From a plasmid, in sequence record NZ_AP023325.1: a stretch of 44,333 bases of DNA. One strand, written 5' to 3'. The position numbers and the translations under genes were made by a program. The first letter of the stretch is position 1, and every line of letters starts with the position of its first letter. Positions 1 through 44,333 of the stretch are shown piece after piece. The notes beneath the pieces were generated by a model. That model saw only the letters and a list, made by a program, of their open reading frames with translations, ran no database searches and was not told the DNA's origin.

Positions 1-2
1 GC

Positions 3-270
3 CTCGCCGAGTTCGAGCGAGAACTGATCGTCGAGCGCACGCGCGCCGGTCTGGAGTCCGCTCGGGCACGCGGTCGGCACGGCGGGCGTCCGTTCAAGAT
101 GACGCCGGCCAAACTGCGTCTCGCCAGCCGCGATGGGCAAACCGGAAACCAAGGTCGCGGAGCTATGCGCCGAACTCGGCGTGACGCGCCAAACACTCTA
201 CCGACACGTCACGCCGAAGGGCGAGATCAGGCCCGATGGTGAAAAGCTGTTGGCGCGAGGGCGCCGATAG
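3..270 (+). CDS. tnpR: Serine resolvase (TnpR of transposon 1), C-terminal part continuing from the window end. Catalytic-domain end (LAEFERELIVERTRAGLESARARG) in frame 3, then the HTH (MGKPETKVAELCAELGVTRQTLYRHVTPKGE) in frame 1, implying a 1-bp indel near 125-135.
   Basis: Own translation. Conserved resolvase motifs. The window end (…GRLIFAIFA + g) joins the window start (gc ctc gcc…) in frame to give IFAGLAEFERE. Confidence 0.8.
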
Positions 271-293
271 CAGTCGGCTGAAGCTGCTCAGGT

Positions 294-1073
294 TCAGAGC
301 GACGATGCCGTAACGTAGGTTCCTACCGCAATCACGACGGCGGCAAAGCCACGTTCGAGCAGCCCCTTACGGGTGCCGAGAACCTTGCCCAATGCAATAC
401 CGCCGATCGTTCCAGCGACGCCGCCCACGACCAGCATCGCGGTCACGCTCCAGTCGACCAGCCCCGACAGGGCGTAGGACAAGGCGGTGGTCAACCCCAG
501 CGCGCTGACGACGACCAGCGACGTGCCGATCGCGAAGGGCAGCGGCATCGCGGTCGCGAGGATCAGCCCCGGCACGATCAGGAAGCCGCCCCCGATCCCG
601 AAGAAGCCGGCGGCAAGCCCGACGCCCAGCCCGATCGGAACCAAGCGCGGCAGCAGCGTCGAGGCGCTATCGCGGGTCAGTCGCACGTCCGGCGCTTCCG
701 CCGTGCGGCGCTTGCGCAACATCGACAAACCGACGCCAATCATCAGAAGCCCGAACAGGACAAGCAGTCGCTTGCCGTCGAACGCCTTGCCCAACTCCGC
801 CCCCAGCGCCGCGCCGATCATTCCGGAGACGGCGAAGACACTGGCGCACCGCCATTTCACGCGGCCCGCTCGCGCATGGCCGACCAGGCTGGCAAGCGCA
901 TTGACGGTGACGGCGACAGCGGCCGTCCCGATCGCAGCGTGCGGTGATCCGACGCCGACAACATAGATCAGGAGTGGCACGGCGAGGATCGACCCGCCTC
1001 CGCCGACAAGGCCGAGGATCAGGCCAATCACGCCGCCCGATGCAAGCGCGGCAAGGGTGGCAGCGGTGTCCAC
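294..1073 (-). CDS. TauE/SafE (DUF81) family sulfite/anion exporter-like membrane protein, 259 aa, intact.
   Basis: ORF track. Glycine-rich multi-TM repeats (GGGGSILAVPLL…, GIGGGFLIVPGL) typical of TauE/SafE. It sits in a BigR-type operon. Confidence 0.8.
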   Translation of the reverse strand: MDTAATLAALASGGVIGLILGLVGGGGSILAVPLLIYVVGVGSPHAAIGTAAVAVTVNALASLVGHARAGRVKWRCASVFAVSGMIGAALGAELGKAFDGKRLLVLFGLLMIGVGLSMLRKRRTAEAPDVRLTRDSASTLLPRLVPIGLGVGLAAGFFGIGGGFLIVPGLILATAMPLPFAIGTSLVVVSALGLTTALSYALSGLVDWSVTAMLVVGGVAGTIGGIALGKVLGTRKGLLERGFAAVVIAVGTYVTASSL

Positions 1074-1080
1074 GATCGCC

Positions 1081-1598
1081 TCAGGCTGTCGCGCGCCGGT
1101 TCCAGGGCATGACGCGCAGCAGGTTGGCCATGCCGCACCACCCCGTCACGCCCGCGAACATCAGCCCCGCCCCGACGAACGCCGACAGCCCGAAGAAGCC
1201 GGGAGCGACGAACGTGCCGAGCAGAACGCCGATCAGCACCAGCCCACCGGCGGTAATCTGCACCTGCCGCATGATTTCCAACGGCTGCGACCGATCGGCG
1301 ACGGTGGGCTGTCCTGCCTGCCGCCACGCATCGATGCCGCCGCCCAGATATAGGCCGGCGCGCCACCCGCTGCCGCGCCGAGCTGCGCCGCATTGGCGGC
1401 GGTGCGCATCCCGGACTTGCAGTGAAAGACGACCGGACGATCGTCGCGCGGGAGATCGCCGATCCGGTCGAGCGGCACGTTCATCGCGCCGGGAATGCGT
1501 TCGCGCGCATGCTCGTCGGCACCGCGAATGTCGATCAGGCGCGCACCGGCATCGATCGCGGCACGGGTATCGTCGGGAGAAAGGGTCGCGAGCGTCAT
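1081..1598 (-). CDS. YgaP-like rhodanese (sulfurtransferase) fused to a C-terminal DUF2892 two-TM domain. The reading frame is broken by a 1-bp deletion at ~1346-1352 (…GGAPAYI / [35 protein letters not shown]…).
   Basis: Own translation of both frames. Rhodanese active-site loop [11 protein letters not shown]. The frames rejoin exactly if one c is restored in cctatatc(c)tgggc. Confidence 0.75.
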
Positions 1599-1602
1599 CG
1601 CA

Positions 1603-1899
1603 TCAATCCTTGCAGTAGAGCTGGTAGAGAGTGCCGAGCAGCGTTTCGACGCGGGCATCCGCGATGGCGTACCAGAGCGTCTGGCTCTCCCGCCGGTAGG
1701 TGACGAGACCCTCGTCGCGCATCCTCGCCGTGCTGCGAGCAGGCCGACTGCGACAAGCCGACATCACGGGCCAGATCGCCGACCGTCATCTCGCCATGCT
1801 CGACCAGCTTGCACAGCAGCATCAGCCGGCGAGCATTGCCGATCGCCTTCAGCGTGTCGGCGACCTGCCCGGCCTTCGCCTCGAATGTCGCCAGTCCAT
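1603..1899 (-). CDS. ArsR/SmtB-family (BigR-like) HTH repressor, ~99 aa, with two apparent 1-2-bp indels (~1729-1731 and ~1890).
   Basis: Own translation: …AKAGQVADTLKAIGNARRLMLLCKLVEHGEMTVGDLARDVGLSQSA | VSQHLARMRDEGLVTYRRESQTLWYAIADARVETLLGTLYQLYCKD. Classic ArsR wHTH, recovered by shifting frame. Confidence 0.65.
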
Positions 1900-1951
1900 C
1901 GGCGGTTTGAGCATCATCGCCACTCCATTAGGTGTTGCTTATGTAGCACCA

Positions 1952-1965
1952 GCTAATATATTAGC
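1952..1965. promoter_or_regulatory. Perfect 14-bp palindrome GCTAATATATTAGC in the divergent arsR/MBL intergenic region (flanked by TTGCT…AGCAA). Candidate ArsR/BigR operator.
   Basis: Seen in sequence. It sits between divergent promoters, ~20 bp upstream of the GGAGA RBS of the MBL gene. Confidence 0.5.
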
Positions 1966-1985
1966 AAGCGCTAACGGAGAAAATC

Positions 1986-2861
1986 ATGACTCAGCCCCTC
2001 ATCGAGGCGTTTTTCGACGAGCCGACCAATACGATTAGCTACCTCGTCGGCGATCCCGCGACACGGACTGCGGCGGTGATCGATCCAGTCCTCGACTTCG
2101 ACATGGCGAGCGGCGTCGCCGACACGCGCTCGGCCGAGCGGATCGTCGCCTTCGCCCGCGAGCAGGACTGGCGGATCGCGATGGTGCTGGAGACGCACGC
2201 TCATGCCGATCATCTGTCGGCCGCACCCTTCATCAAGGCGCATACAGGCGCATGGATCGGGATCGGCGCGCATATCCGCGACGTGCAGAAAATCTTCCGC
2301 CCCGTGTTCGCGATGGATGATCTGAAAACGGACGGCTCGGACTTCGACCGCCTGTTCGAGAATGGCGACCAGTTCGCGATCGGGGCGCTGGCGGTCGAGG
2401 TGCTGCATGTCCCCGGCCACACCCCGGCCGACGTGACCTATCTGATCGGCGATGCGGCGTTCGTCGGGGATACGCTGTTCATGCCCGACTATGGCACCGC
2501 CCGCGCCGACTTCCCGGGCGGGGATGCGCGGACGCTCTATCGCTCGATCCGCCGGCTATTGGCGCTGCCCGACGAGACGCGACTGTTCCTCTGCCACGAC
2601 TACAAGGCACCGGGTCGCGACGACTATCGCTGGGAGACGACGGTGGGCGAGCAGCGACGGTCGAGCGTCCACGTCCATGACGGTGTGAATGAGGACGACT
2701 TCGTCGCCATGCGCGAGCAGCGTGACGCCGGGCTATCCGTGCCCAAGCTCCTGCTGCCCTCGATCCAGGTCAACATCCGCGCGGGCCATTTCGATCAGGC
2801 GGAGGCGAACGGTGTCACCTACTTGCGTATTCCGGTAAAATGGAAAGCCGGCCATCCGTGA
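1986..2861 (+). CDS. MBL-fold metallo-hydrolase, ETHE1/Blh-like persulfide dioxygenase (291 aa, intact).
   Basis: ORF track. ETHAHADH (HxHxDH) motif. GGAGA RBS 6 nt upstream. Divergent from an ArsR gene, as in bigR-blh loci. Confidence 0.75.
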   Translation: MTQPLIEAFFDEPTNTISYLVGDPATRTAAVIDPVLDFDMASGVADTRSAERIVAFAREQDWRIAMVLETHAHADHLSAAPFIKAHTGAWIGIGAHIRDVQKIFRPVFAMDDLKTDGSDFDRLFENGDQFAIGALAVEVLHVPGHTPADVTYLIGDAAFVGDTLFMPDYGTARADFPGGDARTLYRSIRRLLALPDETRLFLCHDYKAPGRDDYRWETTVGEQRRSSVHVHDGVNEDDFVAMREQRDAGLSVPKLLLPSIQVNIRAGHFDQAEANGVTYLRIPVKWKAGHP

Positions 2862-2890
2862 TGTCATACGATCGCTGACACGGCTTTGTG

Positions 2891-2928
2891 CTTAGCGTAC
2901 GTTTTCGACCATCCTCTCACCGGTCCCC
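2891..2928. repeat. 38-bp terminal inverted repeat of Tn3-family transposon 1 (cttagcgtacgttttcgaccatcctctcaccggtcccc), followed by the TSD GTTCT (2929-2933).
   Basis: Perfect reverse-complement match to 40857-40894. Canonical GGGG…ACGCTAAG Tn3-family IR architecture. Confidence 0.85.
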
Positions 2929-4218
2929 GTTCTGGCGGCCCTTCACCGACATTCCCGATATCGACATGGACACGGCCGCGATCGTCCGCGCCTGGAGCGC
3001 GGCGCGCGACGCGGTGCTTACGATCCTACGCGCGAAAGCCGCCGCGCCCCTGGATGCGATGGAGCTGTCGCCAGAATGCATCGCCGCGATCGACGCCTAT
3101 GACGTTCATCGCGCGATGGTTGCTGACCTCTCGGACGCGCTCCTCGCCCGCAATCCATCGATCGCCATCGTCAAGGAACAGGCCGCAGTCGCCGACATAG
3201 CCACGCTGTCCGACGACCTCGCGAAGCTCACCGCTGTAAGGACGCGGCACCAGACACCCACCGCCGCGCTTTGCGATGCATACCTCGGGGAGAAAGCGGC
3301 CAAGAAGGCGACGGAAAAATTACGCGATGAGGCACGCGCCGCGCTCGACCAATATCGGGGAGGTGTCTTCCCCGCCTACGAGGCCGCGATCAACGACTAT
3401 CTGGGCCGCTTCAACGCCGGTTTTCGGCTTGGCTCCGTCACGTCGGTGAACAACCGGGGCGGATCGTCCGCCAGCTACAGCGTACTCATCAACAACGTCG
3501 CGGTCGCGCTGAGCGCCGATGGTGGCCCTTCGTTCAAGAACACGCTCAGCGCCGGTGATCGAAACGCCCTCGCCTTGGCCTTCTTCTTCGCCTCGCTCGA
3601 TCAGGACGCCCGGTTGGCGGAAAAGGTCGTGGTCATCGACGATCCCATGACAAGCCTGGATGAACATCGGCGGCTCACGACGGTCCAGAGATGCGCCGGC
3701 TATATGGCCGGGTACGTCAGATGATCGTGTTATCTCATTCCAAGGCGTTTCTCTGCGCCGTGTGGGACGGCGCGGATCGAATGGCTCGCTGCGCCCTTCA
3801 GATCGTGCGAAGCGGCGGGGGATCGACGCTCGCGCCCTGGGACGTGCGGCAAGACACGCTCACGCCGCACGATCGCCGGCACGAGCTGGTGCGGGAATAT
3901 CTCCGGACCAGCGATTCCGCGCGCGAGCGCGAGGTCGCTGCGGCGCTCCGTCCAATCCTAGAAGCGTTCATGCGGGTGGCTCACCCCGAAACCTTCCCGC
4001 CAGGCACACTGCTTGGCCCATTCATTGCCATATGCCAGCAGCGGCATGATGGACCCGGCGAGATACTATCCCCGGTTGCGACGACCGAGCTGCGCGCGCT
4101 GCTCGATTACGCCAACACCTTCCATCACGATACGAACCCGGCTTGGGAAACCGCCCTCATCAACGATCGGGAGCTGCTTGGCTTCGCTACCCGGACGATT
4201 GCCTTCGCTTCGCGGTAA
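2929..4218 (+). pseudogene. 3' half of an AAA_13/RloC-PrrC-like ABC-type ATPase gene cut by transposon 1. Carries the ABC signature LSAGDRNALALAFFFASL, Walker B/D-loop VVVIDDPMTSLDEHR and a ~170-aa C-terminal domain of unknown function. Has an additional 1-bp frameshift at ~3690.
   Basis: Own translation. Once the transposon and one TSD copy are removed it continues in frame from the 5' half at 39853-40856 (…VENREFW|RPFTDIPDID…). Confidence 0.7.
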
Positions 4219-5049
4219 CTAGACCTGACGCAGCTCGTCCAGAAGCTCGTCAGCACATGTTCGAGGTCCGGGAACACCGGATGCTCTTGGAAGTGCCGGG
4301 TCAGCTCCGTGTCGATCGTCTCTGGAGACTTGGCGTCCTCCTTCGACTTTTCAGCCCATTTCCGCCACGGGTGCAACGTGTCCCAAGGCGACCGCTTATT
4401 GGCGCGGGTGGTGGCGTCGTCGCCATGCTTGCCCAAGCCATAGAGGATGCTCGTCTCGCTGTTCCAGATCGGTCGGAACAGGTGGATCATGTAATCCTCG
4501 GCGGCCGTCTCCCATCCGCTCTGCACCACGAGCGAGCGAAACTCGAAATCCGCCAGTCCAGCGTCGTGGTGGCCGTGCCGATGTTCTTGCGGTGATCGGA
4601 CAGCCTACCACAAAGCCGCGGTCCCTGTTCCAGCGGCGTGCGCGCGTTGTTGATCGCCGGCGCGGCCGGCCGACATAGATGGGCGTCTCGCTACCGCTGA
4701 TCGGCGCGTAAAGCGGGAAGGGGCCGTTGTAATAGATGGCGTAGATGCCCGACCCGTAGAAGCGCGGTATCTCGGCCAACGGGTGCCGCTGCTGCGCGAC
4801 CAGCGCGAGCGACACGAACCGCCCTACCACCTTGGGGTTGCTCGGATCGAAGACGGCCGATGGCTGCCGGATCGGATCGAGCGTGTTCAGGAACGAACCC
4901 AGCTCCTGGATCACGGCGCGAATCTCTTTCTCAAGCGCGCGCCGCCGTGGAGCCGACAGCGTGGTCGCGGCCGTCTGCTCCATGAGACTGTCGAGATTGG
5001 CGCGCAGCTCGGCGATGGGCGACGGCGCGGGAGTAGGCTTGCGGCTCAT
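4125..5049 (-). CDS. GIY-YIG restriction endonuclease (Eco29kI-like), frameshifted. The true 3' end may be at 4219.
   Basis: GIY…YVG motif (FYGSGIYAIYYNGPFPLYAPISGSETPIYVG). Immediately downstream of, and overlapping, a C5-MTase gene. Confidence 0.5.
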
Positions 5050-6229
5050 GCGGCGACCAGATCCTCGCCACGTTCGCGCCGATCGCGTGGGCGAGTTGTA
5101 CCGGAACCGCGTTGCCGAGCTGACGCATGGATTCAGTCCATGACCCGTGAAAGCGGAAGGTATCGGGGAAGGTTTGCAGGCGGGCACTCTCCCTCACGCT
5201 GAAATACCGCACGCTGCCATCCGCCCGGCGAAGCATGTTCTCGCCACGGCACGCCATGCACGCCGGCCTTCAACGTCTTCGCCGGCTCGTCCATCGGACT
5301 GCCAGTGTGCCCGACATAGCTACGCGCGCCGCCCTGGAAGCGATGGTTGAGGCACTTGGCCGCCAGTTCCGGCGCGAGCTGGGGGTCCGGCAGGTCGCCG
5401 ATCGCGTCGCGGACCGTCAGCCAAGGTGCCGTCTCGGGCTTCTCGATCAACATGCGGCCGCGGGCAAGAAGGCGAGCGTCCAGCAGCCGATCGCGCACCG
5501 CGACCTCGTGCCGGTCCCAATACTCGCCCGATCGAACCTGGTCCCACAGCAGCGCGTCCAGCGAATGAGTATGCTCCGGGAAGGACCATTCGATGCCAAG
5601 ATCGGCGCGGAAGCCGACGAACACAACGCGCTCGCGGCGCTGTGGCACACCGTGGTTCGCCGCGTTGAGGACGCGATAAACGACGTTGTAGCGCAACTCG
5701 TCTTGGCTGCCCCTAGCCGTGTGATGCCGCTCCGGCGCACCATGTGGTCGCTCCACGCCTCGCCCGGCAGCGGCGTCAGCTCGGGATAGGTAAGCTGGTG
5801 AACGATATGGGCGAGATAGGTCGCGAAGCTCGCGCGGGTCAGCCCCTTCACGTTCTCGAACACGAATGCCCTTGGCCGCGTCTCGCGCACGACGCGTACC
5901 GCCTCCGGCCACATGTCGCGGGTATCGGCATGGGCGCGATGCTTGCCGCCAAGCGAGAAAGGCTGACAGGGCGGCCCGCCGCTCACGAGGTCGATCTTGC
6001 CCTCGTGCTTCCGAAAATCGACCTTGCGAATGTCGCCCTCGATCGGCTCCGGCCACCGTCCGATACCACCCGTCTTGGCGCGGCGGTTCTCCCGGATCGT
6101 GTCGCAGCACCAACGGTCCCACTCAACGATCTGCACCGGCTTGAAGCCGGCCTTGCTGATGCCCATGCCCAGGCCCCCGGCCCCGGCGAACAATTCAATG
6201 GCGCGCATGGTCGACTCCCTCGCCTTCAA
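5040..6229 (-). CDS. DNA cytosine-5 methyltransferase (Dcm-type) with at least 2 frameshifts.
   Basis: Motifs I ELFAGAGGLGMG, IV GGPPCQPFS, VI ENV, VIII QRRERVVFVG, X RESARLQTFPD…GNAVPV, spread over three frames. Confidence 0.8.
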
Positions 6230-6640
6230 GAAAGGCTCTAATCTTGTTCTCTAGTTGTTCCATTTGCCGACATTCGCATTCCCACACAACCATCTGACGC
6301 CAACCTTCGCTCTCCAACGTCTCGCGGACGCGCTCGTCGCGCTCCCGGTTGCCTTCAAGCTTCGGCCCCCAAAAATCCTGCCTCGATTTCGGCATCCGCG
6401 CCAGCTTGCAGTTAGGATCGGGATGCCGATGCCAGAAACAGCCATGCACGAAGATGACCTTGCGGCGGCTCCTGAATACAAGGTCAGGGCTTCCGAGGAG
6501 GCGCTTGTCGTGAAGACGATAGCGGTAGCCCATCCCATGAACCAGACGACGGACGACCATTTCTGGCTTGGTATTCTTCGCGCGCACCCGCCCCATCCGT
6601 TCCGAGCGAGCTTCGGGTGACAAAGTATCTACCACGAACA
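6195..6640 (-). CDS. vsr: Very-short-patch repair endonuclease Vsr. Its stop overlaps the MTase start.
   Basis: LSPEARSERMGRVRAKNTKPE…FVHGCFWHRH…VVWECE matches Vsr hallmarks. Confidence 0.75.
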
Positions 6641-6645
6641 GTCTA

Positions 6646-7344
6646 TCACTTCGCCGCCGATGCGATACGCACCGTGCAAGGCACCGTCTCACCCGCCTTG
6701 TTCGCGCGCTTCTGGCACGCCTCCAGCACGACGCGGTTGGCGGTAACGATCCGATCCCCCGCCGCGATGTTGGCGAAGGCATCTGGTCCAGCGGCCCGCA
6801 TCAGGCGTTGCCCGGCTTCCCATTTCGGCAGATCAAGCGTGCGCGCCGCCATCCACTCAGGCACCTGCCATCTATCCGGCAGCGCGCGGGCGACGACACC
6901 CGGCACGACCGTCCACAACAGCATTCCGCCCAGGCACGCCCCCGCCCCGACCTGCCACAGCGTCCGGCGCTGCTCGTCCGCGCGACGGGCAACACCGCCG
7001 ATCCCGTGCAACGCGGTCGTCGCCCGGTCCATCTTCTCGCCGGCGCTGGCGATCATGCGCCGATCCTCGTCGCGGGCATTGGCGCCGGCCGCGACGATGC
7101 GGTCGGCGACATGGCGCGGCGCGACATTATCCTCGGCCGCCTTCGCCAGCACGCCGACATTCTGCATAGTGGCGTTGAGCGCCTTGGCCATCCGCCCCAG
7201 CGTCTCGCTGTAATCGGGTATCTGCGGCACCTCGGCGCGCTCGGCCGCCAGTCGCTCGACGGCGCGGCGCATCAGGGCCATTTCGCCGCGAATCTGCTCA
7301 AACGCTTCCACCGCGGCATCCGGTTCGTGATCGTCGTGGCTCAT
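6646..7344 (-). CDS. Hypothetical protein (232 aa) downstream of traA on the same strand, with an acidic N-terminus.
   Basis: ORF track. Protein-like composition. No family I can recognise. Confidence 0.4.
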   Translation of the reverse strand: MSHDDHEPDAAVEAFEQIRGEMALMRRAVERLAAERAEVPQIPDYSETLGRMAKALNATMQNVGVLAKAAEDNVAPRHVADRIVAAGANARDEDRRMIASAGEKMDRATTALHGIGGVARRADEQRRTLWQVGAGACLGGMLLWTVVPGVVARALPDRWQVPEWMAARTLDLPKWEAGQRLMRAAGPDAFANIAAGDRIVTANRVVLEACQKRANKAGETVPCTVRIASAAK

Positions 7345-7401
7345 GCGGTCCCCCTTTCCCGTATGAAAGCACGAAGCCAGTCCTACCCGAAAGCACGAAC
7401 C

Positions 7402-10838: not shown

Positions 10839-10854
10839 TACGCGGGGCTGGGTC

Positions 10855-13025: not shown

Positions 13026-13146
13026 GGGGCACCTCAAGGTTTGTCATATGGACAGCGGCAGTCGGAACAAATGGTCAACAAAAGCCTGAGCGTTGCCGCA
13101 AAGTATATTAAGTTTCGTGGGTTTGTGAGGTTGGACGAGTTGGAAG

Positions 13147-13770
13147 TTACCGGATCACCTCTCGTGATGTTTCACCCGCGGAGCTCGTAGTAGACGATCT
13201 GCCATCCATTCTTGGGACCGCGCCACTGGGTGATCTGAAAGCTATGGGCTTGTGCAGACCCGTCCAGACGCGGCTACTCCACCGTAGCGTTTCATCGTAA
13301 CTGCTTCCGGACGATAACGCACCCGCTATGCGCCGAATGGGCAGCTTGGCGGGGAGCCTGCGGATGCGTCGGCCATCGTTGCCGACAAAGATAACGTCTT
13401 CGGCCACGCTTCGTCTTGGAACAGCCAACCAGTCGACCTGTTTGCCGGCCTGCTCCTGTCGCAAAACAGACGCGATCTCTTTCGCATCGCTAACGGCTTG
13501 GATTTGGAGCTGTTCATTGGTGAGTTTTGCCGAGCACTCAGGTTCGATCGCTTGTAAACTTTCTGCCGCTAATGCCTTCGATCCATCCCGACGATAGTCG
13601 TCGATTTCCCAGCGCCACCCCTCAGCACTGTTCCGCCAAAGCGTCTTATATGATCCAACTCGATTTCCGCCATCGTACAGCCCGCCGATAACAACTGCCG
13701 ACCCGCTCGGATCACAGGACGGAAAGACAAGTTCGGGTCTGCGCTCGGCATGGCTCTCGACACTCATCAT
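13147..13770 (-). CDS. Hypothetical protein in the low-GC cargo segment of transposon 2 (start taken at MMSVESH).
   Basis: ORF track. GC content clearly lower than the surroundings. No recognisable family. Confidence 0.35.
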   Translation of the reverse strand: MMSVESHAERRPELVFPSCDPSGSAVVIGGLYDGGNRVGSYKTLWRNSAEGWRWEIDDYRRDGSKALAAESLQAIEPECSAKLTNEQLQIQAVSDAKEIASVLRQEQAGKQVDWLAVPRRSVAEDVIFVGNDGRRIRRLPAKLPIRRIAGALSSGSSYDETLRWSSRVWTGLHKPIAFRSPSGAVPRMDGRSSTTSSAGETSREVIR

Positions 13771-14025
13771 TGTGAGCCACCACCTTCGGCTACTCTCGGC
13801 TACTCTCGGCTGCTTGCAACATGCTGGCCACAGATGGAGAGCGCGCGGTTTCGGGCGCATGTTGTATTGGCCAGGGGTCGCTTTGTGGACCGAAACTGCG
13901 TGCCGCTGCCTGACGGCCACTGGCAAGTACAGCTTCCGAGTAGGCCCGCTCCGCCTCCAGCGCGGAATTCGGCGAACTTGCCGCTAGTAGAAGCGCGAAG
14001 ATCATGGCGAAATCCTACTCCTCAA

Positions 14026-14605
14026 TCAACGTGTCGAGCGATGTACGGGCATCTGCGCCGGATGGTTGAGCGCCCGATAGAGCGTGGCATGATGACACTT
14101 CAGCAGCTTCGCCGCTTCGCGCACCGATGTGCCTTCGCCGACGAGACGCTGTCCGAGCGCGATCTGGTCCGGAGTGAGCTTGGGCTTACGCCCGAACTTC
14201 ACGCCGCGCGCCATGGCTGCCGCGCGGCCGGAACTGGTACGCTGGTGGATCAGCTCGCGCTCGAACTCCGCGATGCCGGCGAACACGGTGAGCACCATGC
14301 GTCCCGCAGGCGTGGTCGTGTCGGCCCGTGGCTCGGCGAGCGAGCGCAGCCCCGCTCCCGCCTCGTTCAGCTTCTCGGCGATGTCGAGCAGGTCGCGCGT
14401 CGACCGCGCTAGGCGATCGAGCCGGGTGACCACAACCACGTCGTCGTCGCGCAGCTGCTCCAGCATCCGGTCGAGTTCCGGTCGGGCGCGCTTGGCGCCG
14501 GACACCTTCTCCTCGAATGTCCGCCGGCATCCGGCCGCCTTCAGTGCCGTCTTTTGAAGCGTGAGATCCTGATCGTCGGTAGATACGCGCGCATAGCCGA
14601 GGAGC
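14026..14605 (-). CDS. Serine recombinase (resolvase/invertase family), intact.
   Basis: MLLGYARVSTDDQDLTLQ…, catalytic Ser motif, C-terminal HTH. Confidence 0.8.
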
Positions 14606-14718
14606 ATGTCGCAGATGTGCATTGGAACACGGCTGATTAGCAACAGACATTTGCGACAGCGTCCGCCCTCGTGTGTAAACGCTCGCGCTAAATGGCGGCG
14701 TTCTGATCGCGCTATTTG

Positions 14719-15700
14719 TCAGTTGCCGGGTCCGATGACGAGGCAATCGCGCGCGGCCTGAACGATGTCAGCGGTGACCTCCTCGACGCGGTTGAGGGTC
14801 ATGATCCGCCGCATCTGCGCGAACAGGCGCTCCATGAGCCGGAAGTTGCCGCGCGTGATGCGGATCACGGCTGCCTGCGCTTCGATCGCGTCGAGTTGGG
14901 CCGGGTCGAAGCTGATCCCGAAATCGCCGGCGTGGGTCGCGAGCAGCAGCCGCATTTCGGTCTCGGTAAGCGGTTTGAACTCGTGGACGAAGCCGATCCG
15001 CGAGTAGAGCTGGGCATAGCGGGCGAGGCGCTTCTCCAAGCCCGGCATACCCATCAGGATCAGCCCGAAGCCGTGGCGATCGGCCATGTCGCGGAGATGT
15101 TCGAGCGACTTTATGGTCAGGCGGTCGGCCTCGTCGACGATGACGAGGGGGCAGGCGATGCGGGCGGCGTCATGGGTGATTTCGTCCTGCGAGCCGCCCG
15201 CGACCGTCAGCCGGGCATAGCCCAGCTTAATGAGGTTGAGGCCCAACACCGCGTCGATCGTCTTGGGCGTGTTGCTGACCGACACGGTGTAGAAGACGGC
15301 GCGGCAGCGAGCGACCTTTTCGCCAAGGAGCGCGGCAATGGGACGGAGCGCGGCATATTCCCCGTGTCGGGGAAGCTGGAAAACTCGCGCGCCGATCGCG
15401 TCTTTCCGACGCCCGGCCGGCCATGACACACGCCGATATAGCGGTAGTGCGCGCAGGCTTCGGCAAACTCGACGAACCGGGCATGTTCGCGGGTCGCCGG
15501 AACGGCTGCTCGACCAGGAACTCAATCGTCAGCGGCGTAGAGCCGGAGCCCTCGGTAGGTGGTGGGCCGGGAAGCCGTATCCTCTTGGTCGCCATCGAAG
15601 GTCTCCGTGGGGGCAGGCACCTGCTTGTCGCGCTCCTTCGCGCCGCGCCGGGCGCGCTGGATCGCGCGCAACGACGGGTGCCCAGCGTGCTCGGAGCTGA
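14719..15700 (-). CDS. tniB: TniB-like AAA+ transposition ATPase (Tn402/Tn5053 family), frameshifted.
   Basis: Walker A GRPGVGKTRSAREF in one frame and Walker B LVIVDEADRL in another. Confidence 0.65.
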
Positions 15701-16996
15701 GCGCACGGCAGACGAACCGGCCCTGGTAGACGTGGATCTCGGTCAGGTCGCGGGGTCATAGACCGCCTCGACCTGCTCGCCGACGAAGGCCGCGAGCGTG
15801 GGTTCGACATAGCGCCTGCCCATCAGACGGATGCCGTCGCGCAGCACTTTACGGGGCTTGGGCACGTGCACGAGCAGCATGTCGAGCTGTTCAAGGCTGT
15901 CGGGCATTGCGGGCAGGAACCCGCCCTTCTGCCAGCGCGTGATCGGCGGTTCGCCGGTGCTGCCATGCGGGCGACGATGATAGACGCCGCACACGAACGC
16001 CTCGAAGCGGGCGCGCAGCTCGTCGAGCGTGAGCACTGGCGCCGACAGCGGCTTGCCCGCGATCAGGTGGCCGGGCAGGTCGGGCAGGAACATGTCGTTG
16101 ATGGTGCGGAACAGCCGCTCGATCTTGCCGCGCCCGCGAGGACGCCCCGGCAGCGAATGGATGAGGCGGATTTTGAGGGCGATGCACGCCTGCTCGATAT
16201 GCTCGGAGATGAAATCCGAGCCGTTGTCGACGTAAAGCTGTTCGGGAATGCCGCTGACGATCCATTCGGGATTGGGCTTGCGCCAGATCGCCTGCCGCAA
16301 GGCGAGCGCCGTGTTGAGGGCACTGGGGGCATCGAGGCTGAGGAAGTAACCGGCGATGGCTCGGCTGTGATCGTCAACGATGACGGTCAGCCAAGGACGC
16401 ACCGGGGTTCCGGCATCATCGAGCACGAGAATGTCGAGAACGGTATGATCGGCCTGCCACATCTCGTTCGAGGTCGCGGCTTCGCGCCGATGCACTAGCT
16501 CGTGCTGGTCGCGGTAGACGGCCGGATCGGAGGCTGCGGCGATCTGGCTTGCCGGTATCGCCCTGACGACACGCGCGACGGCCGCATAGCTGGGGGTTCG
16601 GTGTCCATGCGCGATGGCGAGTTCCTGCACCTTTCGGTGAATGGCGGCGACCGGGGGTCGCGGGCGCTTGGTGGCGAGAGTGCGGGTCAGTTCGACCAGA
16701 TGTTCCGGCAGGTGCAGCCTGCCCCGATCGTTGCGCGGCAGACGCGCGAGACCGGCAAGTCCTTCGGCACGGTAGCGCCCGAGCCAGCGCTGCAACGTCC
16801 GCTCGCTCAGCGTGCCGGTGCGGGCGAGGTCCGCGAGCGGGATGCCATCGGCGAGGTGCGGTTCAAGGACGCGGTAGCGCTCGATCGCCAGCGGCGGGAC
16901 AAGCGCCGGATGCGTCACCGCCGACGGTCCGTGTCGCAGGTAAGGAAAACGGAGATTTGCCTGCCCATCGCCATGCGAGTCCGCTCGCGTTGCCAA
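15530..16996 (-). CDS. tniA: TniA-like DDE (Mu-type) transposase, 3' frameshift.
   Basis: DDE core WQADHTVLD…VIVDDHSRAIAGY…YVDNGSDF. Confidence 0.7.
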
Positions 16997-17109
16997 ACCG
17001 GCCTGTTCGACGTAAATCTACCCGGTAAAGAAAACTAGGGCAACATAGACCTGCCGATGACGACTTTCTTCCCAAACCGCGCCCGATCGGGGCGCCACCG
17101 GCCCTACGC

Positions 17110-17681
17110 ATGAAAATCGGTTACGCCCGCGTATCGACCGCCGAGCAGAACCTGGACCTCCAGCGTGATGCGCTGAAGGCTGCCGGCTGCGAGAAGGTCA
17201 TCACCGACAAGGCCTCCGGGGCGACTGCCGCTCGCCCCGGATTGGAAAAGGTGAAGGAGCTGCTTCGCGCCGGCGACACACTGGTGGTCTGGCGCCTCGA
17301 CAGGCTCGGCCGCTCGCTCCGTGATCTGATCGGATGGATGACCTACCTCGACGAGGAAAAGGTCGGGCTGCTGAGCCTGCACGAGGCGATCGACACGACC
17401 ACCACGTCGGGCAAGCTTACCTTCCACCTGTTCGGGGCATTGGCGGAGTTCGAGCGCAACCTGATCCGCGAGCGGACCCGGCCGGTCTCACCGCAGCCCG
17501 CGCTCGCGGCAAGAAGGGTGGCCGGCCGGCCGCACTCGGCAAGGACAAGCGCGACCTGGCCGTCAGGCTCTACCACGAGAACACGATGCCGATCGCCAAG
17601 ATTTGCTCGATGCTCGGCATCTCCAAGCCAACACTCTACGCCTATGTGCGATCGGCCGAGACCAAGCCGGTAGCCGCGTAG
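17110..17681 (+). CDS. tnpR: Serine resolvase (probable tnpR of transposon 2), 1 frameshift ~17485.
   Basis: MKIGYARVSTAEQNLDLQ… plus an HTH tail in a second frame. Confidence 0.75.
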
Positions 17682-17844
17682 CGACGCTCGCCGACAAATA
17701 GCGCGATCAGAATGCCGCCACTTAGCGCGAGCGTTTACACCTCGTGGCGTGACCGGTCAGGGCCGCTGTCACGAAACTTGAGAGTTACGCGACACCTCGC
17801 ACGTGTCGGCCATAAACTATACGCTCCCGGACAGGGGGTGATCG

Positions 17845-20798
17845 ATGGCCAGACGCGATCTGTTAACGGGCGACGAACGCCGCGCGTTGTTCGGCGTGCC
17901 CCTCGACCATGCCTCGCTCGCCAAGCATTACACGGTTGCCGATGAGGACCGGCCACTGATCGAAGCGAAGCGCGGCGACGCCAACCGGCTCGGCTTCGCG
18001 CTGCACCTCGCCCTGCTGCGTCATCCCGGCTTCGGCATACGCCACGACGATGTCGTCCCCGATTTTCTGATCCGGCACCTGGCCGCGCAACTCGACATCG
18101 CGCCCACAGCGTTCGAGGGCTACGCGCATCGCGCCCAGACCCGGCTCGAACACGCCCGGGAGGCGATGGAGCGTTTGCGCCTGCGCGCGTTCGAGGCGGC
18201 CGACGTCCCCGGCGCGCTCGGCGCAGCCACCCGCGCGGCGGAAGCGACCGAACGGGGCAAGCCGATCGCCGCGCAGTGCTGGGCCATTTGCGTGCTGCCC
18301 GGATCGTTCTGCCCGCGCCCGCCCGTATCGAGCGGATCGGGGTGGCGGGGCGCGCCATGGCGCGCCGCCTCGCGGCCGACACGCTGGTCGATGCGCTTGC
18401 TCCGGAGCAGGTGACGGGGCTGGATGCGTTGCTGATCGTGGACCAGATCGCAGCACGACGCCGCTCGCGTGGCTGCGCGACACGTCGGACAGCCCGACCG
18501 CGCGCAATCTCGCCGGCATTCTCGCCCGGCTCGCGCACGTGCGCCGGCTCGGGCTCGACCCGGGCATGGCCGGCCGCATCCACGAGCACCGCTTCGAGCA
18601 GCTCGTGCGCGAAGGCCACGTCGCGCCCGCGTTCCTCCTGTCCGACTACTCGCTCCGCAGAAGGCGCGCGACACTCGCCGCAGCCGTCATCGACCGGAAG
18701 CGCGGCTCGCGGACGCCGCGATCGAGATGTTCGGCAAGCAGACCGGCCTCCTGTTCGCCGGGCGGGCCGCGCAGAAGCGCGGCATCGAGGCGACCACACG
18801 CGACGTGAACCGGCTCATGCGGCTGCTGGGCGCCACGGTCGGCGCACTCCGGGTCGCGCGCGAGGACGGGTTGGACGTCTGGGCGGCGCTCGACGACGGG
18901 GTGGGCTGGACGAGGCTTCTGGACGCCGAGAGCGAGGCGACCGCGATCGCCGACCTGACTCGCGACGAGCCGCTGATCCGCGCGGCGGGGCGCTACATGA
19001 CGATGCGGCGCTACGCGCCCGCGTTTTTTGACGCGTTCCGGTTCAAGGCGGCAGGCTCGCGCGACGGCGTGCTCGGCGCGATCAAGGTCGTGCGCGCGCT
19101 GAACGCGACCGGGCGGCGAGACGTACCGGCCGATGCGCCCATGCCGTTTTCCAGAAAATGGAAGGCGGCGATCACCGAGGGCGGCGTCATCGACCGCCGT
19201 CGCTACGAAACCGCCACGGTCGCGACCGTGCGCGAGCGGCTCCAATCGGGCGACCTGTGGGTGGAGGGTACGCGCGAACACCTGCGCTTCGACAGCTATA
19301 TGCTCCCGCCCGGCAAAGCGGCCGAGATCGCGCTCACGCTGCCGTTCGACACCGACGTCGGCCGCTACTTGAGGGCGCGCCAGCTGCTCGACTGGCGGTT
19401 GCGCCGGTTCGCAGGCTCGCTGAAGCGCGGCACGCTCGACGGCGTGGAGCTGCGGGGCGGTAACCTCAGGGTCAGCCCGCTCGCGGCCGTAACGCCCGCT
19501 GCGGCCGACAGGCTGGACGCGGCCGTCGACCGGCTCATGCCCCGCGTGCGCATCACCGAGCTGCTCGCCGAGGTGGAAGCCCGCACCGGGTTCCTGTGCG
19601 CATTTCCGGAACTGCGCTCGGGCCGCGCCCACTCCAACCCGCAGGCCGTGCTCGCCGCGATCCTGGCAGACGCGACGAACCTCGGCATCGAGCGCATGGC
19701 CAACGCCAGCCGTGGCGTCACCTACGCCCAGCTCGCCCGACGCATGGCTGGTACGTATCGGAAGAGAATTACGCGGCAGGGCTGCGCCATCTGGTGGACG
19801 CGCAAGCCGCGCTGCCGCTCACGCGCGTGTGGGGCGACGGCACCGCGTCGAGCTCGGACGGGCAGTTCTTCCGCTCGGGCAGGCGGGCGCGGCCGGCAGC
19901 ACCAACGCGCGCTACGACCGGGAGCCGGGGCAGAAGATCTACGCCCATGTCGCCGATACCTACGCGCCCTACCATGTCCGGCTGATCTCGGCGACCGCGG
20001 CGGAGGCGCCCTATGTGCTGGACGGGCTGGTCGCGCACGGCTGCGGCATCGAACCCGCGACCCACTATGCCGATACGGGCGGCGCGTCCGACCACGTGTT
20101 CGCGCTCGCGCACCTACTCGGCTTCCGGTTCGTGCCCCGCCTGCGCGATCTAGCCGATCGCCGGCTCGGCCTGTTCCCGGGCACGGCCCGCCCCGAGGCG
20201 CTCGCGAAGCTGATCGGGCGCCCGTTCAACATCGCTGCCATCCGCGAAAGCTGGGACGAGATCGTCCGGCTCGCCGCGTCCGTGAAGGCCGGCGTGGTGC
20301 TACCGTCGGTCATGCTGAAGAAGCTGGCCGCGTACCGTCGCCAGAACCGGCTCGACTTCGCGCTCCAGAGCTGGGCCGGATCGAGCGCACCCTGTTCACG
20401 CTCGACTGGCTAGAATCCGTGGCGCTCCGCCAGCAGTGTCAGGCTGGGCTCAACAAGGGCGAGGCGCGTCACACGCTCGCCCAAGCCGTGTTCGTCCACA
20501 AACAGGGCCGCCTGCGCGATCCGCAGTTCGAGAACCGGCGCTGAAAGCGTCCGGGCTGACGCTGGTCACCGCCGCGATCGTGTACTGGAACACGCTTTAC
20601 ATGGGCCGCGCCGTCGAGCATCTGCGCGCCAGCGGCGAGCCCGCGCCCGACGAGCTGCTCGCCCATGTAGCCCCGCTAGGCTGGCGACACATCAGCCTGA
20701 CCGGCGATTACCTCTGGCAAAACGCCGCTGCCGAGCTCGATCAAGACGGCTACCGCGCACTCAACATCGCCGGCGGACCCGGAGCCAAGGTGGCCTGA
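17845..20798 (+). pseudogene. tnpA: Tn3-family transposase TnpA of transposon 2, broken into at least 4 frames.
   Basis: N-terminus MARRDLLTGDERRALFGVPLD…, central and C-terminal (…HVAPLGWRHISLTGDYLW) TnpA regions in consecutive ORF-track pieces. Confidence 0.75.
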
Positions 20799-20865
20799 GC
20801 CGCCCTGTTCGCTACCTGTTCAGCTTACCGCTGTCCGTGTCACAAACCTTGAGGTGCTCCCTATC

Positions 20866-26802: not shown

Positions 26803-26809
26803 CGCCCGA

Positions 26810-38393: not shown

Positions 38394-38408
38394 CGGATAC
38401 CCGTTCTT

Positions 38409-38441: not shown

Positions 38442-38452
38442 CCAACTATCGA

Positions 38453-40856: not shown

Positions 40857-40894
40857 GGGGACCGGTGAGAGGATGGTCGAAAACGTACGCTAAG
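40857..40894. repeat. 38-bp terminal IR of transposon 1 (GGGGACCGGTGAGAGGATGGTCGAAAACGTACGCTAAG), preceded by the TSD GTTCT (40852-40856).
   Basis: Perfect inverted match to 2891-2928. Confidence 0.85.
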
Positions 40895-43869
40895 CGTCCC
40901 GGCTTTGCTGGTGGAGGCGCAGCGGCCTGAACCGCTCGCGAGGTTTGTCGATCTCGCCCCAGAGATAGTCGCCGGTGAGGCCGATATGCTCCCAGCCCAG
41001 AGGGGCGACGTGGGCGAGCAGCTCGTCGGGCACGTCGACGCCGCTGCCGCGCAGATGACGGACAGCTCGGTCGAGATAGACGGTGTTCCAGAGCGTCATG
41101 GCCGCGGTGACGAGGGTCAGGCCGGAGGCGCGATGGCGCTGGTTCTCGAAGGTGCGGTCGCGCAGTTCGCCGAGGCGGTTGAAGAAGATGGCGCGGGCGA
41201 GCGCGTTGCGGGCCTCGCCCTTGTTGAGAATGCTGCCGGTGCGACGACGCTGGTCGGGATCATCGAACCAGTCGAGCATGAACAGGGTGCGTTCGATCCG
41301 ACCTATCTCCGCAGCGCGCGGGCGACCGAGTTCTGACGCGGGAAGCCCGCCAGCTTGCGGAGCATGACCGAGGCGCTCACCGTGCCGGCGCGGATCGAGG
41401 CGGCAAGGCGCAGGGTTTCGTCCCAGTTCTCCTCGATCGCGCGGATCTTGACCGGACCGGCGACGAGCGGGCGCAGCGTCGGCCACGAGTCGAGCGGCGA
41501 CAGGCTGTAGAGCCGGCGCTCGTTGAGGTCGCGGATGCGGGGCGCGAAGCGGAAGCCGAGCAGATGGCACAGGCCGAAGACATGATCGACCGCGCCGGCG
41601 GTATCGGTCGCATGTTCGCGGATGACCAGCTCGCTTTCATGGTCGAGCAGGCCGTCGAGGACATGCGCGGCCTCGCCGGCATTGGCGGCGATGACCTTGG
41701 TGTGGAACGGCGTGAAGCGGTCGGTGACGTGGGTGTAGAACAGCACGCCTGGTTCGGTGCCATAGCGGGCGTTGTGATCGGCGCGGGCCTCGCCCTGACC
41801 ACCGGCACGAAAGAACTGCCCGTCCGACGACGATGTATCGCCCGGTCCCCAGACCGCCGCGAGCGGATGCGCGGTATGGCAATCGACGATCGCCGCCAGC
41901 GCCGACAGATAGGTTTCGTCGCGCACATGCCATTCCGCCGTCCAGCGCAGGCGAGACAACGTCAGCCCGCGCGAGCTTTCGGCCATGCGGCCCGGCCGAG
42001 GTTGGTCGCATCGGCGAGGATCGCACCCATCAGCGCGGACTGGTCGGAGGCGGGCGCCGCTGCGCGCATGGACGAAACGGTCGGCGAATCCCGACCATGC
42101 GGCGACCTCGACCAGCAGATCGGTGATTCGGACGCGCGGCAGCATCGCGTAGAGCCGGGCCTTTAGCGCATCGGCATCGTCGGACGGGGATCGCCGGATC
42201 GACGATATGAGCAACTGCCCGCGTTCGATCGTCACATCGACCAGCTCGCCCGCTGCGGCTGCGCGCTCCACCTCCGTCATGCGCCGGGCCAACAGGGTGC
42301 GGCGTTCCTCGTACCATTTGGAAAAGTCGGTCGGCACAACCAGGCGCAGATCGCCGCTCGCGCGCATCGCTTCGAAGGCGGGCATGGGCAGCTGATAGTC
42401 GTCGAGCGTGCGATAGGCGCGGCTGCCGTCCACCCAGATGCTGCCCGAGCCGAGCCGCTCGCGCAGGTGGGCGATCACTGCGATCTCATAGGCGCGCCGG
42501 TCTATCGTCCCTTCCGCCGGCTGCACGACCTTGCGCCAGCGCGGCTTGATGAAGCTGGTCGGCACTCGCTTCGGCAGGACCGATCGACCGTCGCGGTACA
42601 TCGTGCGCAGCACCTCGATCGCGCCGAGCAGCGGATCAGCCAACCGCGCGGTGCGGAAGGTGAAAGCGGCGAGAAACGTCGGGGCGAAACGCCGCACGGC
42701 GGGATAGCGTTCGACCACTTCTTCCAGCCCGTCATCGGCCGAGCGCGTCAGATCCTCGGCAAAGCGGATGCTGCGTTCGAGCTGATCCCAGCCCATCTTC
42801 GCGTCGATCGCGCGGAAGGCATCGCGCCCGCTCGCACGAGCATCTACCAGCAGGCGACCGAGCCGGGCATGGAAACGCGCGGTGTCCTTCAGCATCCGTG
42901 CCCGGCCGAGCAGCCGATCGGAGCGGGTGCGGTCGGCACGGCGGAACAGCGCGCCCACCATCTTCTCCACCATGACCAGCGCGGCGTCGGTCAACGTCGC
43001 TTCCATCTCGATCACGGAAGCTACGAGCATGGCGAGCCGGCGCGGACGTTCGAGACGCCGCAGGTGCTGGGCGGTGACGATGCCGGCGGTCCGCGCAATG
43101 ACGGCATAGCGAGCAGCATGGATACGTCGTGCTCGATCAGCCGCGATCCCGATGCCGCGCACGGTGTCGAGCCGTTCGACGATTCCCTTCAGGTCCGCGG
43201 CCGATGGTGCTTCCGGCCATTCGCGTATCCATCCTAGCCGGGTGCGCCCATCATCGTCGGAGGCGATCATGTGTTCGAGTGCGGCTTCCTGTTCGGTCGA
43301 ACAGTCGCGGATCAGATTGAATGGGCCGCCTTGCGCGCCCGTGTCCGCACGATGAGGGCGAGCCGTTCCAGCGTCGATGTCGCCGGCAGTACGATCCGGT
43401 CCGCCCGCAAGCGATCGACCATGCCTGTGACGATCGTCTCACCTCTATCAGTCGAAGCGGCAATCTCCGATCCCAGCGCCAGCATCGCCCGTACATCCAC
43501 CCGCGCGAAGGCGCGCAGACCGAGCAGAGCTTCGATCTCGGCCCGGTGTTCGCGCAATGTCGTGGGGCGCGTGGCATAGCCGGTGAAGTCGTCGGCTACG
43601 CACCCGATCTGATCGGCGAGCAGCGCGAGCATGGCGGCGGGCACCGCATCCCCCGTCAGTAGCCTGCGACCGGGATGACGCAGGTAGCAAAGCTGCACCG
43701 CATAGCCGAGCCGGTTCGCCCCGCGCCGACGTCGCGCCACCTGTGCCAGATCGTCGGGACCGAGCGTATAGAGCCGTTCGATCGTCGCGCGATCGGCAGG
43801 CGGGTCGAAGATCAGCAGCTGCGCGGGCGACAGGATGGTCTTGGTCGGCATCGGCTTCCTGTTCGTCAC
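40890..43869 (-). CDS. tnpA: Tn3-family transposase TnpA of transposon 1, ~990 aa over 3 frames (at least 2 frameshifts). Its C-terminus ends inside the IR.
   Basis: N-terminus [22 protein letters not shown]…, central 655-aa piece, C-terminus …[18 protein letters not shown]…. Confidence 0.8.
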
Positions 43870-43979
43870 GAAACAGGAAAGCGTACCCGTTCATGGAGCA
43901 TAGACCAGAAGACGGGTTATGTGACATTATCGCGATTGATCGACGGGCAATGCCGCTCCGTCACGTGAACGGACGTATA
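43870..43979. promoter_or_regulatory. res: Probable res site between divergent tnpA and tnpR. Contains TGTGACA-type repeats (TTATGTGACATTA, TATATGTGACAACG).
   Basis: Seen in sequence. Canonical position. Confidence 0.45.
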
Positions 43980-44333
43980 TGTGACAACGCAGATCGGTTA
44001 CGCGCGGGTGTCCAAGGCGGACGGCAGCCGTCCACGACCTGCAGCACGACGCGCTGGTCGCGGCCGGCGTCGATCCCGAGCATATCTATGAGGATGCCGC
44101 ATCGGGCCGGCTCGACAAGCGACCGGGACTGGACGCCTGCCTGAAGGCGCTGCGCCGCGACGACACGCTGGTCATCTGGAAACTCGATCGGCTCGGCCGC
44201 GATTTGCGCCACCTCGTCAATACGGTTGGTGATCTGACGAAGCGTGGCATCGGGTTGAAGGTGCTGGCGGGCGAAGGCGCGTCGATTGACACAACCACCG
44301 CCAACGGTCGGCTGATCTTCGCGATTTTCGCCG
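43980..44333 (+). CDS. tnpR: Serine resolvase TnpR of transposon 1, N-terminal part (GTG start). Indel at ~44030. Runs off the window end and continues at base 3.
   Basis: VTTQIGYARVSKADGS…DTLVIWKLDRLGRDLRHLV…GRLIFAIFA. Confidence 0.8.

Follow-up and report, generated by a model that had tools for sequence, protein, structure and literature searches.

Genes and features of the window

The window, i.e. the whole 44,333-nucleotide stretch of plasmid DNA analysed here (NZ_AP023325.1), contains at 1081-4218 a rhodanese-domain gene, an ArsR/SmtB regulator gene, an MBL-fold hydrolase gene and most of an AAA_13 ATPase gene (Table 1). This interval straddles the right end of the first of two Tn3-family transposons. 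A metagenome scaffold from a different sample (ENA ERZ23491645, scaffold_144; hereafter L017) carries the same plasmid backbone without both transposons, and was used as the intact counterpart of the backbone genes.

The first transposon splits the AAA_13 ATPase gene, whose 5' part was found at 39853-40858, with the transposon between it and the 3' part. When the transposon was removed in silico and three single bases were repaired, a 763-codon open reading frame was obtained, which matches the L017 product except at one position. Judged from the sequence comparison, this split and that of the conjugative coupling-protein gene by the second transposon are the two real gene disruptions on the plasmid.

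Table 1. Features of the window, with the breaks and differences located in each
Feature	Position	Strand	Remarks
Rhodanese-domain (YgaP-like) gene, 172 codons	1084..1598	-	Very probably artificial split at 1346 (reference CCAGG, window CCAG)
ArsR/SmtB regulator gene, 105 codons	1606..1917	-	Two very probably artificial breaks (1726-1729, 1893), net -3
MBL-fold hydrolase gene	1986..2861	+	Intact; sole CCWGG site (2765) correctly called
Right terminal inverted repeat, 39 bp, of first Tn3-family transposon	2890..2928		
AAA_13 ATPase gene, 3' two-thirds	2929..4218	+	Very probably artificial break at 3688 (CCAGG to CCAG)
Eco29kI-family (GIY-YIG) restriction endonuclease gene	4219..5049	-	Breaks 4242, 4556, 4667; substitution 4367; all four are CCWGG sites
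C5 cytosine methyltransferase gene, M.Eco29kI type	5046..6208	-	Breaks 5733 (CCAGG to CCGG), 5247 (CCTGG minus two bases), 5064 (C run)
Vsr-type mismatch endonuclease gene	6195..6632	-	Intact; first gene of the vsr-methylase-nuclease cassette
Second Tn3-family composite insertion	13028..20860		Hypothetical gene, resolvase, TniB, TniA, resolvase, tnpA; splits the conjugative coupling-protein gene
Backbone segment	20861..27813		RepA, ParG, ParA, SprT, histidine kinase, response regulator, TolC; 12 differences from L017 (11 indels, one substitution), all in CCWGG or G/C runs
Backbone segment	35345..40858		YeiH, DUF305, YncE, resolvase, 5' part of AAA_13; 10 differences from L017 (9 indels, one substitution)
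First Tn3-family transposon	40859..44333 and 1..2928		Perfect inverted repeats, 5-6 bp duplication GTTCTG; absent from L017

Frame breaks in conserved genes

An earlier note on this DNA had reported frame breaks in conserved genes, and we confirmed that they exist at all four junctions cited there (1346, 1726-1729, 1893 and 3688), each of which is a CCWGG site; their frequency is far above chance. The reference for window positions 1-2929 was Sphingomonas paucimobilis CP065669, which is 99.7% identical. Insertion of one G after 1346 yielded a protein identical to WP_042469176.1. In the ArsR gene, CCTGGCCAGG has become CCTCGCCG at 1726-1729 (aligned CCTCGCC--G), while at 1893 the reference CCAGG is CCAG in the window, and the repaired translation is identical to WP_042469298.1. 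The description of these junctions as one base short in a C or G run held for the base loss at 1346, 1893 and 3688, but not at 1726-1729, where one substitution is combined with the loss of two bases; also, in the example given as ccgatgg[g]actgg the absent base is actually C, i.e. ccgatggac[c]tgg.

Through tblastn of intact reference proteins against the window, genes were found to be split across at least two frames, and both flanks of many breaks showed 100% amino-acid identity up to the junction. We counted 63 indel events in the 42.4 kb of comparable sequence of the 44-kb plasmid, 60 of which are not a multiple of three. These approximately 60 events disrupt the frame of about 22 genes compared with references, to which GNAT may be added, instead of the at least 30 genes estimated before. 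The histidine-kinase gene contains three 1-base deletions with a sum of -3, which masks the damage. The genes earlier listed as clean were confirmed as such (TauE and the MBL-fold gene with one CCWGG site each, both intact), except that three bases are lost in frame from the 38589 resolvase. The unbroken genes appear clean because they contain few CCWGG sites and those were called correctly. Programmed frameshifting or transcriptional slippage found no support, since the frame change is not conserved and the homologues in CP065669, CP117412 and L017 are single-frame at every junction.

Comparison with an intact backbone copy

All backbone genes are intact in L017, and its TraA is identical to that of the window. 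Across 22,593 aligned bases the two sequences showed 32 differences, 27 of them indels: 20 are located in CCWGG, 11 in G/C runs of at least three, and one in a GG pair. No ordinary SNP was found in these 22,593 bases, and none of the 32 differences falls in a CCGCGG site. Of the ten differences in the segment 35345..40858, five affect CCWGG, four affect runs of four to six G or C, and the tenth is the one in the GG pair (37902). No PLSDB record covers most of the window, and the matches were mosaic pieces only.

Sequence context of the errors

For the main tally, 36,856 bases of the window were compared with near-identical references, revealing 55 indel events (51 deletions and 4 insertions). 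CCWGG holds 32 of them (58%) though it comprises 1.14% of the bases (binomial p~1e-47), and homopolymers of at least three hold another 16. Substitution events in the same bases numbered 22, with 14 within CCWGG. Thus the C or G runs proposed earlier as the determinant form the second class of sites, but the chief determinant is CCWGG. An explanation by homopolymers only was discarded, as the four cited junctions and most of the indels fall within CCWGG, whose "run" comprises no more than two bases.

In an unbiased k-mer scan of the reference context of the deletions, CCAGG/CCTGG was by far the top 5-mer, with a deletion in 28 of 58 occurrences (p=9e-42); the next independent signal was CCCCC, and the k-mers ranked in between overlap CCWGG. 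The outcomes at the 58 tabulated sites were heterogeneous, including CCA-G (9), CC-GG (8), CC--G (4), CCGTG (3), CCGGG (3) and others. Altogether 49 of the 92 reference CCWGG sites were corrupted, none of them by C-to-T, the change that real deamination of 5mC would leave. The alteration depends on the strand: CCAGG on the + strand was altered at 31 of 45 sites and CCTGG at 18 of 47 (Fisher p=0.004). This orientation on the reported strand was the clearest factor in whether a CCWGG site fails, and the flanking bases showed weak tendencies only.

Other motifs (GATC, CCGG, GGCC, GCGC and CCSGG) were altered at 1.4-5.9% of their sites and GANTC at 3 of 19, counts which include real substitutions against diverged references, compared with about half or more for CCWGG. 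The errors are unevenly distributed. The highest density was found in the second Tn3-family insertion, with 18 indel events and 17 of its 24 reference CCWGG sites altered, and a 7.5-kb stretch at 5734-13266, in which 11 CCWGG sites and 44 G/C runs are present, is free of indels (P~2e-5 if the rate were uniform).

Restriction-modification cassette

The intact endonuclease in L017 has 277 aa and belongs to PF09517 (RE_Eco29kI). The plasmid methylase aligns end to end, including the target-recognition region, with the partner methylase of the Eco29kI-family nuclease of small E. coli plasmids (386 aligned residues, 47% of them identical). With E. coli Dcm the identity is 28% and limited to the N-terminal catalytic motifs; the variable target-recognition region, by which a Dcm/EcoRII-type CCWGG methylase would be recognized, does not align. 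The cassette is therefore like the Eco29kI-type systems, with a PF09517 nuclease and a methylase colinear with the E. coli plasmid partner enzyme, and the same vsr-methylase-nuclease gene order also exists on Rhizobium and Methylocaldum plasmids.

Characterised Eco29kI-family nucleases cut CCGCGG, which is also the predicted specificity of the plasmid methylase. CCGCGG was considered as an error motif and rejected, as 1 of 14 sites was altered and so no signal was given. Being of Eco29kI type, the plasmid methylase is therefore probably not the cause of the CCWGG errors. A CCWGG-type methylase was not recognized on the plasmid, so that the presumed CCWGG modification would have to have another source in the host. 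The Eco29kI-type system of this plasmid is probably a bystander, which itself carries seven CCWGG or homopolymer errors and whose predicted site is not error-prone in the assembly.

Origin of the frame breaks

About 70% of the errors in nanopore assemblies were reported to lie in Dcm motifs, followed by homopolymers (Wick, Judd & Holt 2019, Genome Biol 20:129; PMC6591954). Such CCWGG errors vanish when the model has been trained on methylated DNA, and return on retraining with amplified DNA (PMC6591954; PMC11610603), and modification-induced, strand-specific read errors have been described (Genome Res 2024, PMC11610603), which the strand dependence found here fits. The window shares with the published profile the motif, the ranking of the classes (58% in CCWGG here), the dominance of deletions over insertions, the persistence in the consensus and the strand dependence, and the errors are absent from the copy of the same backbone from another sample. 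The published cases concern Enterobacteriaceae with known dcm, whereas here the host is a Sphingomonas with no such methylase on its plasmid; different also are the proportion of about half of the sites affected and the one 7.5-kb error-free stretch.

Considering these features, the broken genes are very likely base-calling errors of an un- or partly corrected long-read assembly of a complete circular Sphingomonas plasmid, whose genes would be whole in the living cell; the platform, we infer, was almost certainly Oxford Nanopore. The motif specificity, the deletion bias and the lack of ordinary SNPs against the intact copy of the same backbone are observed directly. They support the preference of the earlier note for indel errors in a long-read assembly left unpolished, and its possible methylation-context bias can now be sharpened to CCWGG, where the errors are concentrated. 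The base-caller and consensus step would systematically misread CCAGG/CCTGG, most likely because the host methylates the inner cytosine of CCWGG (Dcm-type 5mC or another cytosine modification). The modification may move the pore current off what the model learned, the usual outcome being one or two bases lost; in a second, smaller class, runs of G or C would be shortened, and every lost base would appear as a frameshift in the gene containing the site. That methylation is the cause and that the methylase is encoded off the plasmid is inferential. Against the reading as a whole stand the escape of roughly half of the CCWGG sites, the 7.5-kb stretch free of indels, the origin of the intact copy from a different sample, and the failure to find a CCWGG-type methylase on the plasmid or a report of such methylation in Sphingomonas.

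The indels do stand in the deposited sequence, the affected genes include repA and both transposase genes, and two genes are truly disrupted by transposons; with its many interrupted frames the plasmid looks like a decaying replicon accumulating pseudogenes. Genuine decay by dozens of real frameshift mutations, raised as the alternative in the earlier note, is nevertheless rejected as scarcely credible. Natural divergence gives far more substitutions than indels, and here 27 indels were accompanied by no ordinary SNP in 22.6 kb against the intact backbone, i.e. the substitution excess usual in pseudogenisation is lacking. The indels are nearly all deletions, they are confined to one pentamer and G/C runs, while genuine pseudogenisation has no tie to a single motif, and the same pentamer gives heterogeneous outcomes, with a dependence on the reported strand. 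A real break at 22137 would inactivate the replication initiator gene, yet the full circle was recovered, and the perfect amino-acid identity up to both flanks of many breaks is hardly what decay leaves. A real mutator, arising from mismatch-repair loss or from interference by the plasmid Vsr and making frameshifts at CCWGG and homopolymers, would have a candidate agent in the Vsr homologue encoded here. Vsr overproduction is mutagenic in E. coli, and homopolymer slippage is a real class of mutation. However, such phenotypes produce mostly transitions, none of which was found outside CCWGG in 22.6 kb; no process is known to delete 1-2 bases specifically inside CCWGG; and the variety of products (CCGTG, CCGGG, CC--G) resembles mis-decoding rather than one lesion. 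As Vsr here partners an Eco29kI-type methylase, its expected context is therefore not CCWGG, and we give the mutator almost no weight.

Two further explanations accept an artefact and differ in its source. The C5-methyltransferase at 5046-6208, to which the earlier note had linked the errors, is the plasmid's sole recognized cytosine methylase and adjoins vsr as dcm does in E. coli, so that it might itself methylate CCWGG; its full-length match to the Eco29kI-partner methylase, the restricted match to Dcm, the neighbouring nuclease of the Eco29kI family and the nearly unaltered CCGCGG sites leave that link unsupported and make it quite improbable. It is also unlikely, in our opinion, that CCWGG is poorly handled by the base-caller or consensus model whatever its modification, or that another technology was used. 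This would agree with the correct calling of about half of the CCWGG sites, but we know of no other platform that gives CCWGG-specific deletions. In addition, the literature links errors of the CCWGG class to Dcm methylation (PMC6591954, PMC11610603).

Implications

It would be wrong to take the frame breaks of this plasmid for gene decay. Its genes for replication, partition, efflux, transposition and restriction-modification very probably all work, and the comparison with the intact backbone separates the two real gene disruptions from the artefacts. Any annotation of the record will list about 22 false pseudogenes, and will overlook the garbled stretch of the histidine kinase, whose three deletions cancel; polishing is needed before the record is used.

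No relevant report was found in the literature on CCWGG methylation in Sphingomonas. Were the CCWGG deletions real, a CCWGG-targeted host process, e.g. nicking at methylated CCWGG with faulty short-patch repair, would remove 1-2 bases at half of the sites and make no other mutation, to which we assign a very small probability. It is much more likely that an enzyme encoded off the plasmid modifies CCWGG cytosines in a Dcm-like manner in the Sphingomonas host and that the error pattern is an indirect footprint of this, which would be mildly novel; the footprint thus predicts that the host modifies CCWGG.

Plasmid organization and insertions

The window has a GC content of 62-72% and is of sphingomonad type. 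In the alignment, the match to plasmid record CP065669 (S. paucimobilis) runs continuously from 40857 to 44333 and on into 1-298, therefore the window is a complete circular plasmid of 44,333 bp. GAGTC/GACTC occurred 16 times in the whole window against 44 Markov-expected on both strands (0.37), which may reflect the avoidance of CcrM-type GANTC that is usual in Alphaproteobacteria.

Through lookup of the exact TraA protein, we found L017, a metagenome scaffold of 25,975 bp (ENA ERZ23491645, DONG22-1_SAMN19687755_METAG-scaffold_144) with the same backbone minus both transposons. All of its genes were called full length, the partition genes, Vsr, YncE and YeiH included, and the products comprised RepA (317 aa), coupling protein (514 aa), AAA_13 ATPase (763 aa), methylase (388 aa) and Eco29kI-family nuclease (277 aa).

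Both insertions in the window are real. The Tn3-family transposon is missing from the otherwise identical L017, and the composite insertion splits a gene that is a single ORF there (see table).

Features of the plasmid discussed in the text
Feature	Position	Strand	Remarks
Rhodanese/YgaP gene	1084-1598	minus	
ArsR gene	1606-1917	minus	
MBL-fold gene	1986-2861		Intact
Right end of Tn3-family transposon	2890-2928		Inverted repeat
AAA_13 ATPase gene, 3' two-thirds	2929-4218		
AAA_13 ATPase gene, whole	39853-40858 + 2929-4218		Interrupted by Tn3-family transposon
Tn3-family transposon	40859-44333 + 1-2928		tnpA, resolvase, TauE, rhodanese, ArsR, MBL-fold gene; perfect 39-bp inverted repeats; 5-6 bp target duplication GTTCTG
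vsr, C5 methylase and Eco29kI-family GIY-YIG nuclease cassette	4219-6632	minus	Nuclease with RE_Eco29kI domain
Indel-free stretch	5734-13266		Vsr, DUF6118, TraA, two TraD, 5' part of coupling-protein gene
Conjugative coupling-protein gene	11727-13027 + 20861-21108		Split by composite insertion
Composite insertion	13028-20860		TniA/TniB module, resolvases, Tn3-family tnpA; imperfect inverted repeats
Histidine-kinase gene	24798-26123		
Resolvase gene	38589-39167		

Comparison with intact sequences

Window segments 2929-13027, 20861-27813 and 35345-40858 were aligned to L017, 22,593 bases in total, and 32 differences were found. Twenty lay in CCAGG or CCTGG (CCWGG, a Dcm-type motif) and consisted of 14 deletions, 5 substitutions and 1 insertion; another 11 were length changes in G/C runs of at least 3, and one was a G lost from a GG pair at 37902. 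Ordinary substitutions were zero in these aligned bases.

Window 1-2929 showed 99.7% identity with CP065669, in which the five genes are all annotated intact. Base-by-base alignment gave eight differing columns, seven of them within reference CCAGG/CCTGG sites (123-126, 1346, 1726-1729 and 1893), the remaining one being an ordinary C/T difference at 2553. A further junction, placed near 3690 by the earlier note, is at 3688, where the window reads CCAGAG, against CCAGGAG in both an intact homologue and the intact copy of the same gene. The frameshifts claimed at these junctions are thus present; their common factor is the pentamer CCWGG instead of a C or G run, and in one example of the earlier note the missing base belongs three bases away. 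At 1726-1729 the break exists, though two bases were lost and one substituted, not a single base lost. With the lost bases restored, the rhodanese and ArsR proteins are identical to the reference proteins, and AAA_13, once the transposon is also excised, gives a reading frame of 763 codons.

Most of the window had near-identical references, namely CP117412 for 13026-20862 (99.4%) and CP065669 for 40857-44333 (99.6%); CP155753 covered 34371-38468 (98.2%) and CP015523 covered 24712-32339 (96.8%). In a k-mer scan around deleted bases, with no motif assumed beforehand, CCAGG/CCTGG was far ahead (deletion in 28 of 58 occurrences, p=9e-42); the next independent signal was CCCCC, all intermediate ranks overlapping CCWGG. 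In the non-redundant tally over 36,856 bases against near-identical references, deletions numbered 51 and insertions 4. Of these 55 indel events, 32 were in CCWGG, which makes up 1.14% of the compared bases (p~1e-47), 16 in homopolymers and seven elsewhere. Substitution events fell in CCWGG as well (14 of 22). Across all 42.4 kb comparable there were 63 indel events, 60 not a multiple of three. Corrupted reference CCWGG sites numbered 49 of 92, and the window holds 49 CCWGG against 128 expected under a Markov model. By reported strand, alteration affected 31 of 45 CCAGG sites versus 18 of 47 CCTGG sites (p=0.004). A 10-bp tandem duplication at 13802-13811 (ACTCTCGGCT) relative to CP117412, within a hypothetical gene, lies outside CCWGG and homopolymers and may therefore be genuine.

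Genes affected and genes spared

Against the references, about 22 genes carry frame-disrupting indels, fewer than the "at least 30" first proposed. They are the split resolvase, rhodanese, ArsR, AAA_13 ATPase, nuclease, methylase, a hypothetical gene, TniB, TniA, a second resolvase, both tnpA, RepA, ParG, histidine kinase, response regulator, TolC, RND pump, RND adaptor, LysR, YeiH and YncE. The GNAT gene lies in 2 kb without close reference, and its domain match starts mid-profile. TauE, MBL and TraA are clean as had been described, with their CCWGG sites called correctly (1/1, 1/1 and 4/4); the resolvase at 38589, also listed as clean, is three bases short in a G6 run at 38995 relative to L017, an in-frame loss of one codon. 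In the histidine-kinase gene, single-base deletions at 25755, 25826 and 25928, within 175 bases, total -3; therefore the frame stays open with about 58 codons scrambled, an error invisible to an ORF-length check.

The 7.5-kb stretch 5734-13266 contained no indels, whereas the plasmid as a whole averages 1.5 per kb (P~2e-5 at that rate). It holds 11 CCWGG sites, two of them with substitutions, and 44 G/C runs of at least 4. Site orientation explains the lack of indels in part but does not account for the missing homopolymer errors. Possible causes are read depth, strand balance and partial polishing.

Origin of the frameshifts

Programmed frameshifting was ruled out because homologues are in one frame at every junction. 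Massive decay of the plasmid, the alternative left by the earlier note, is rejected: true divergence would carry substitutions, and outside CCWGG none was found in 22.6 kb; decay would also have disrupted the gene for the replication initiator (22137), yet the plasmid was recovered whole. The corrupted CCWGG products were varied, CCAG, CCGG, CCG, CCGTG and CCGGG among them, and no mutational process is known that takes one or two bases out of CCWGG in particular and leaves so many different products. Mutations arising in a mutator background would be transitions. Genuine deamination of 5-methylcytosine gives C-to-T, and no C-to-T change occurred among the corrupted CCWGG sites.

With default base-callers, about 70% of nanopore consensus errors were in the Dcm motif CCAGG/CCTGG, followed by homopolymer-length errors, and methylation-trained models abolished the motif errors (Wick et al., PMC6591954). 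Modified bases in bacterial DNA give rise to strand-specific errors in reads, which persist into assemblies, and retraining a model on unmethylated DNA brings the CCWGG errors back (PMC11610603). The error properties of the window fit the published nanopore consensus profile, and therefore the frameshifts are almost certainly base-calling and consensus errors. The platform was very probably nanopore, methylation is likely the cause of the errors, and CCWGG most likely carries a modification in the host.

The earlier note had suspected a link between the errors and the C5-methyltransferase of the plasmid itself. The reconstructed methylase, however, shares 47% identity over its full length, target-recognition region included, with the partner methylase of an Eco29kI-family nuclease on small E. 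coli plasmids, and 28% with E. coli Dcm, in the N-terminal catalytic motifs only. The gene order of the cassette is common to Rhizobium leguminosarum pR132502 and a Methylocaldum plasmid, whose nucleases gave no tblastn match to the window at the cut-off applied. CCGCGG, the recognition site of characterised Eco29kI-family systems, was altered at one of 14 sites, with no error excess, and none of the 32 differences from L017 lay inside it. Given the Eco29kI-type affinity and the accuracy at CCGCGG, a role of the plasmid methylase is not supported, and the enzyme responsible for the CCWGG errors probably has its gene elsewhere in the host; a search of the literature yielded no account of CCWGG methylation in Sphingomonas.

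The assembly-error reading is thus supported and refined to CCWGG and homopolymers, the nanopore signature. The frameshifts would stem from a nanopore assembly polished incompletely or not at all; they are an artefact of a known kind and no biological feature of the plasmid.
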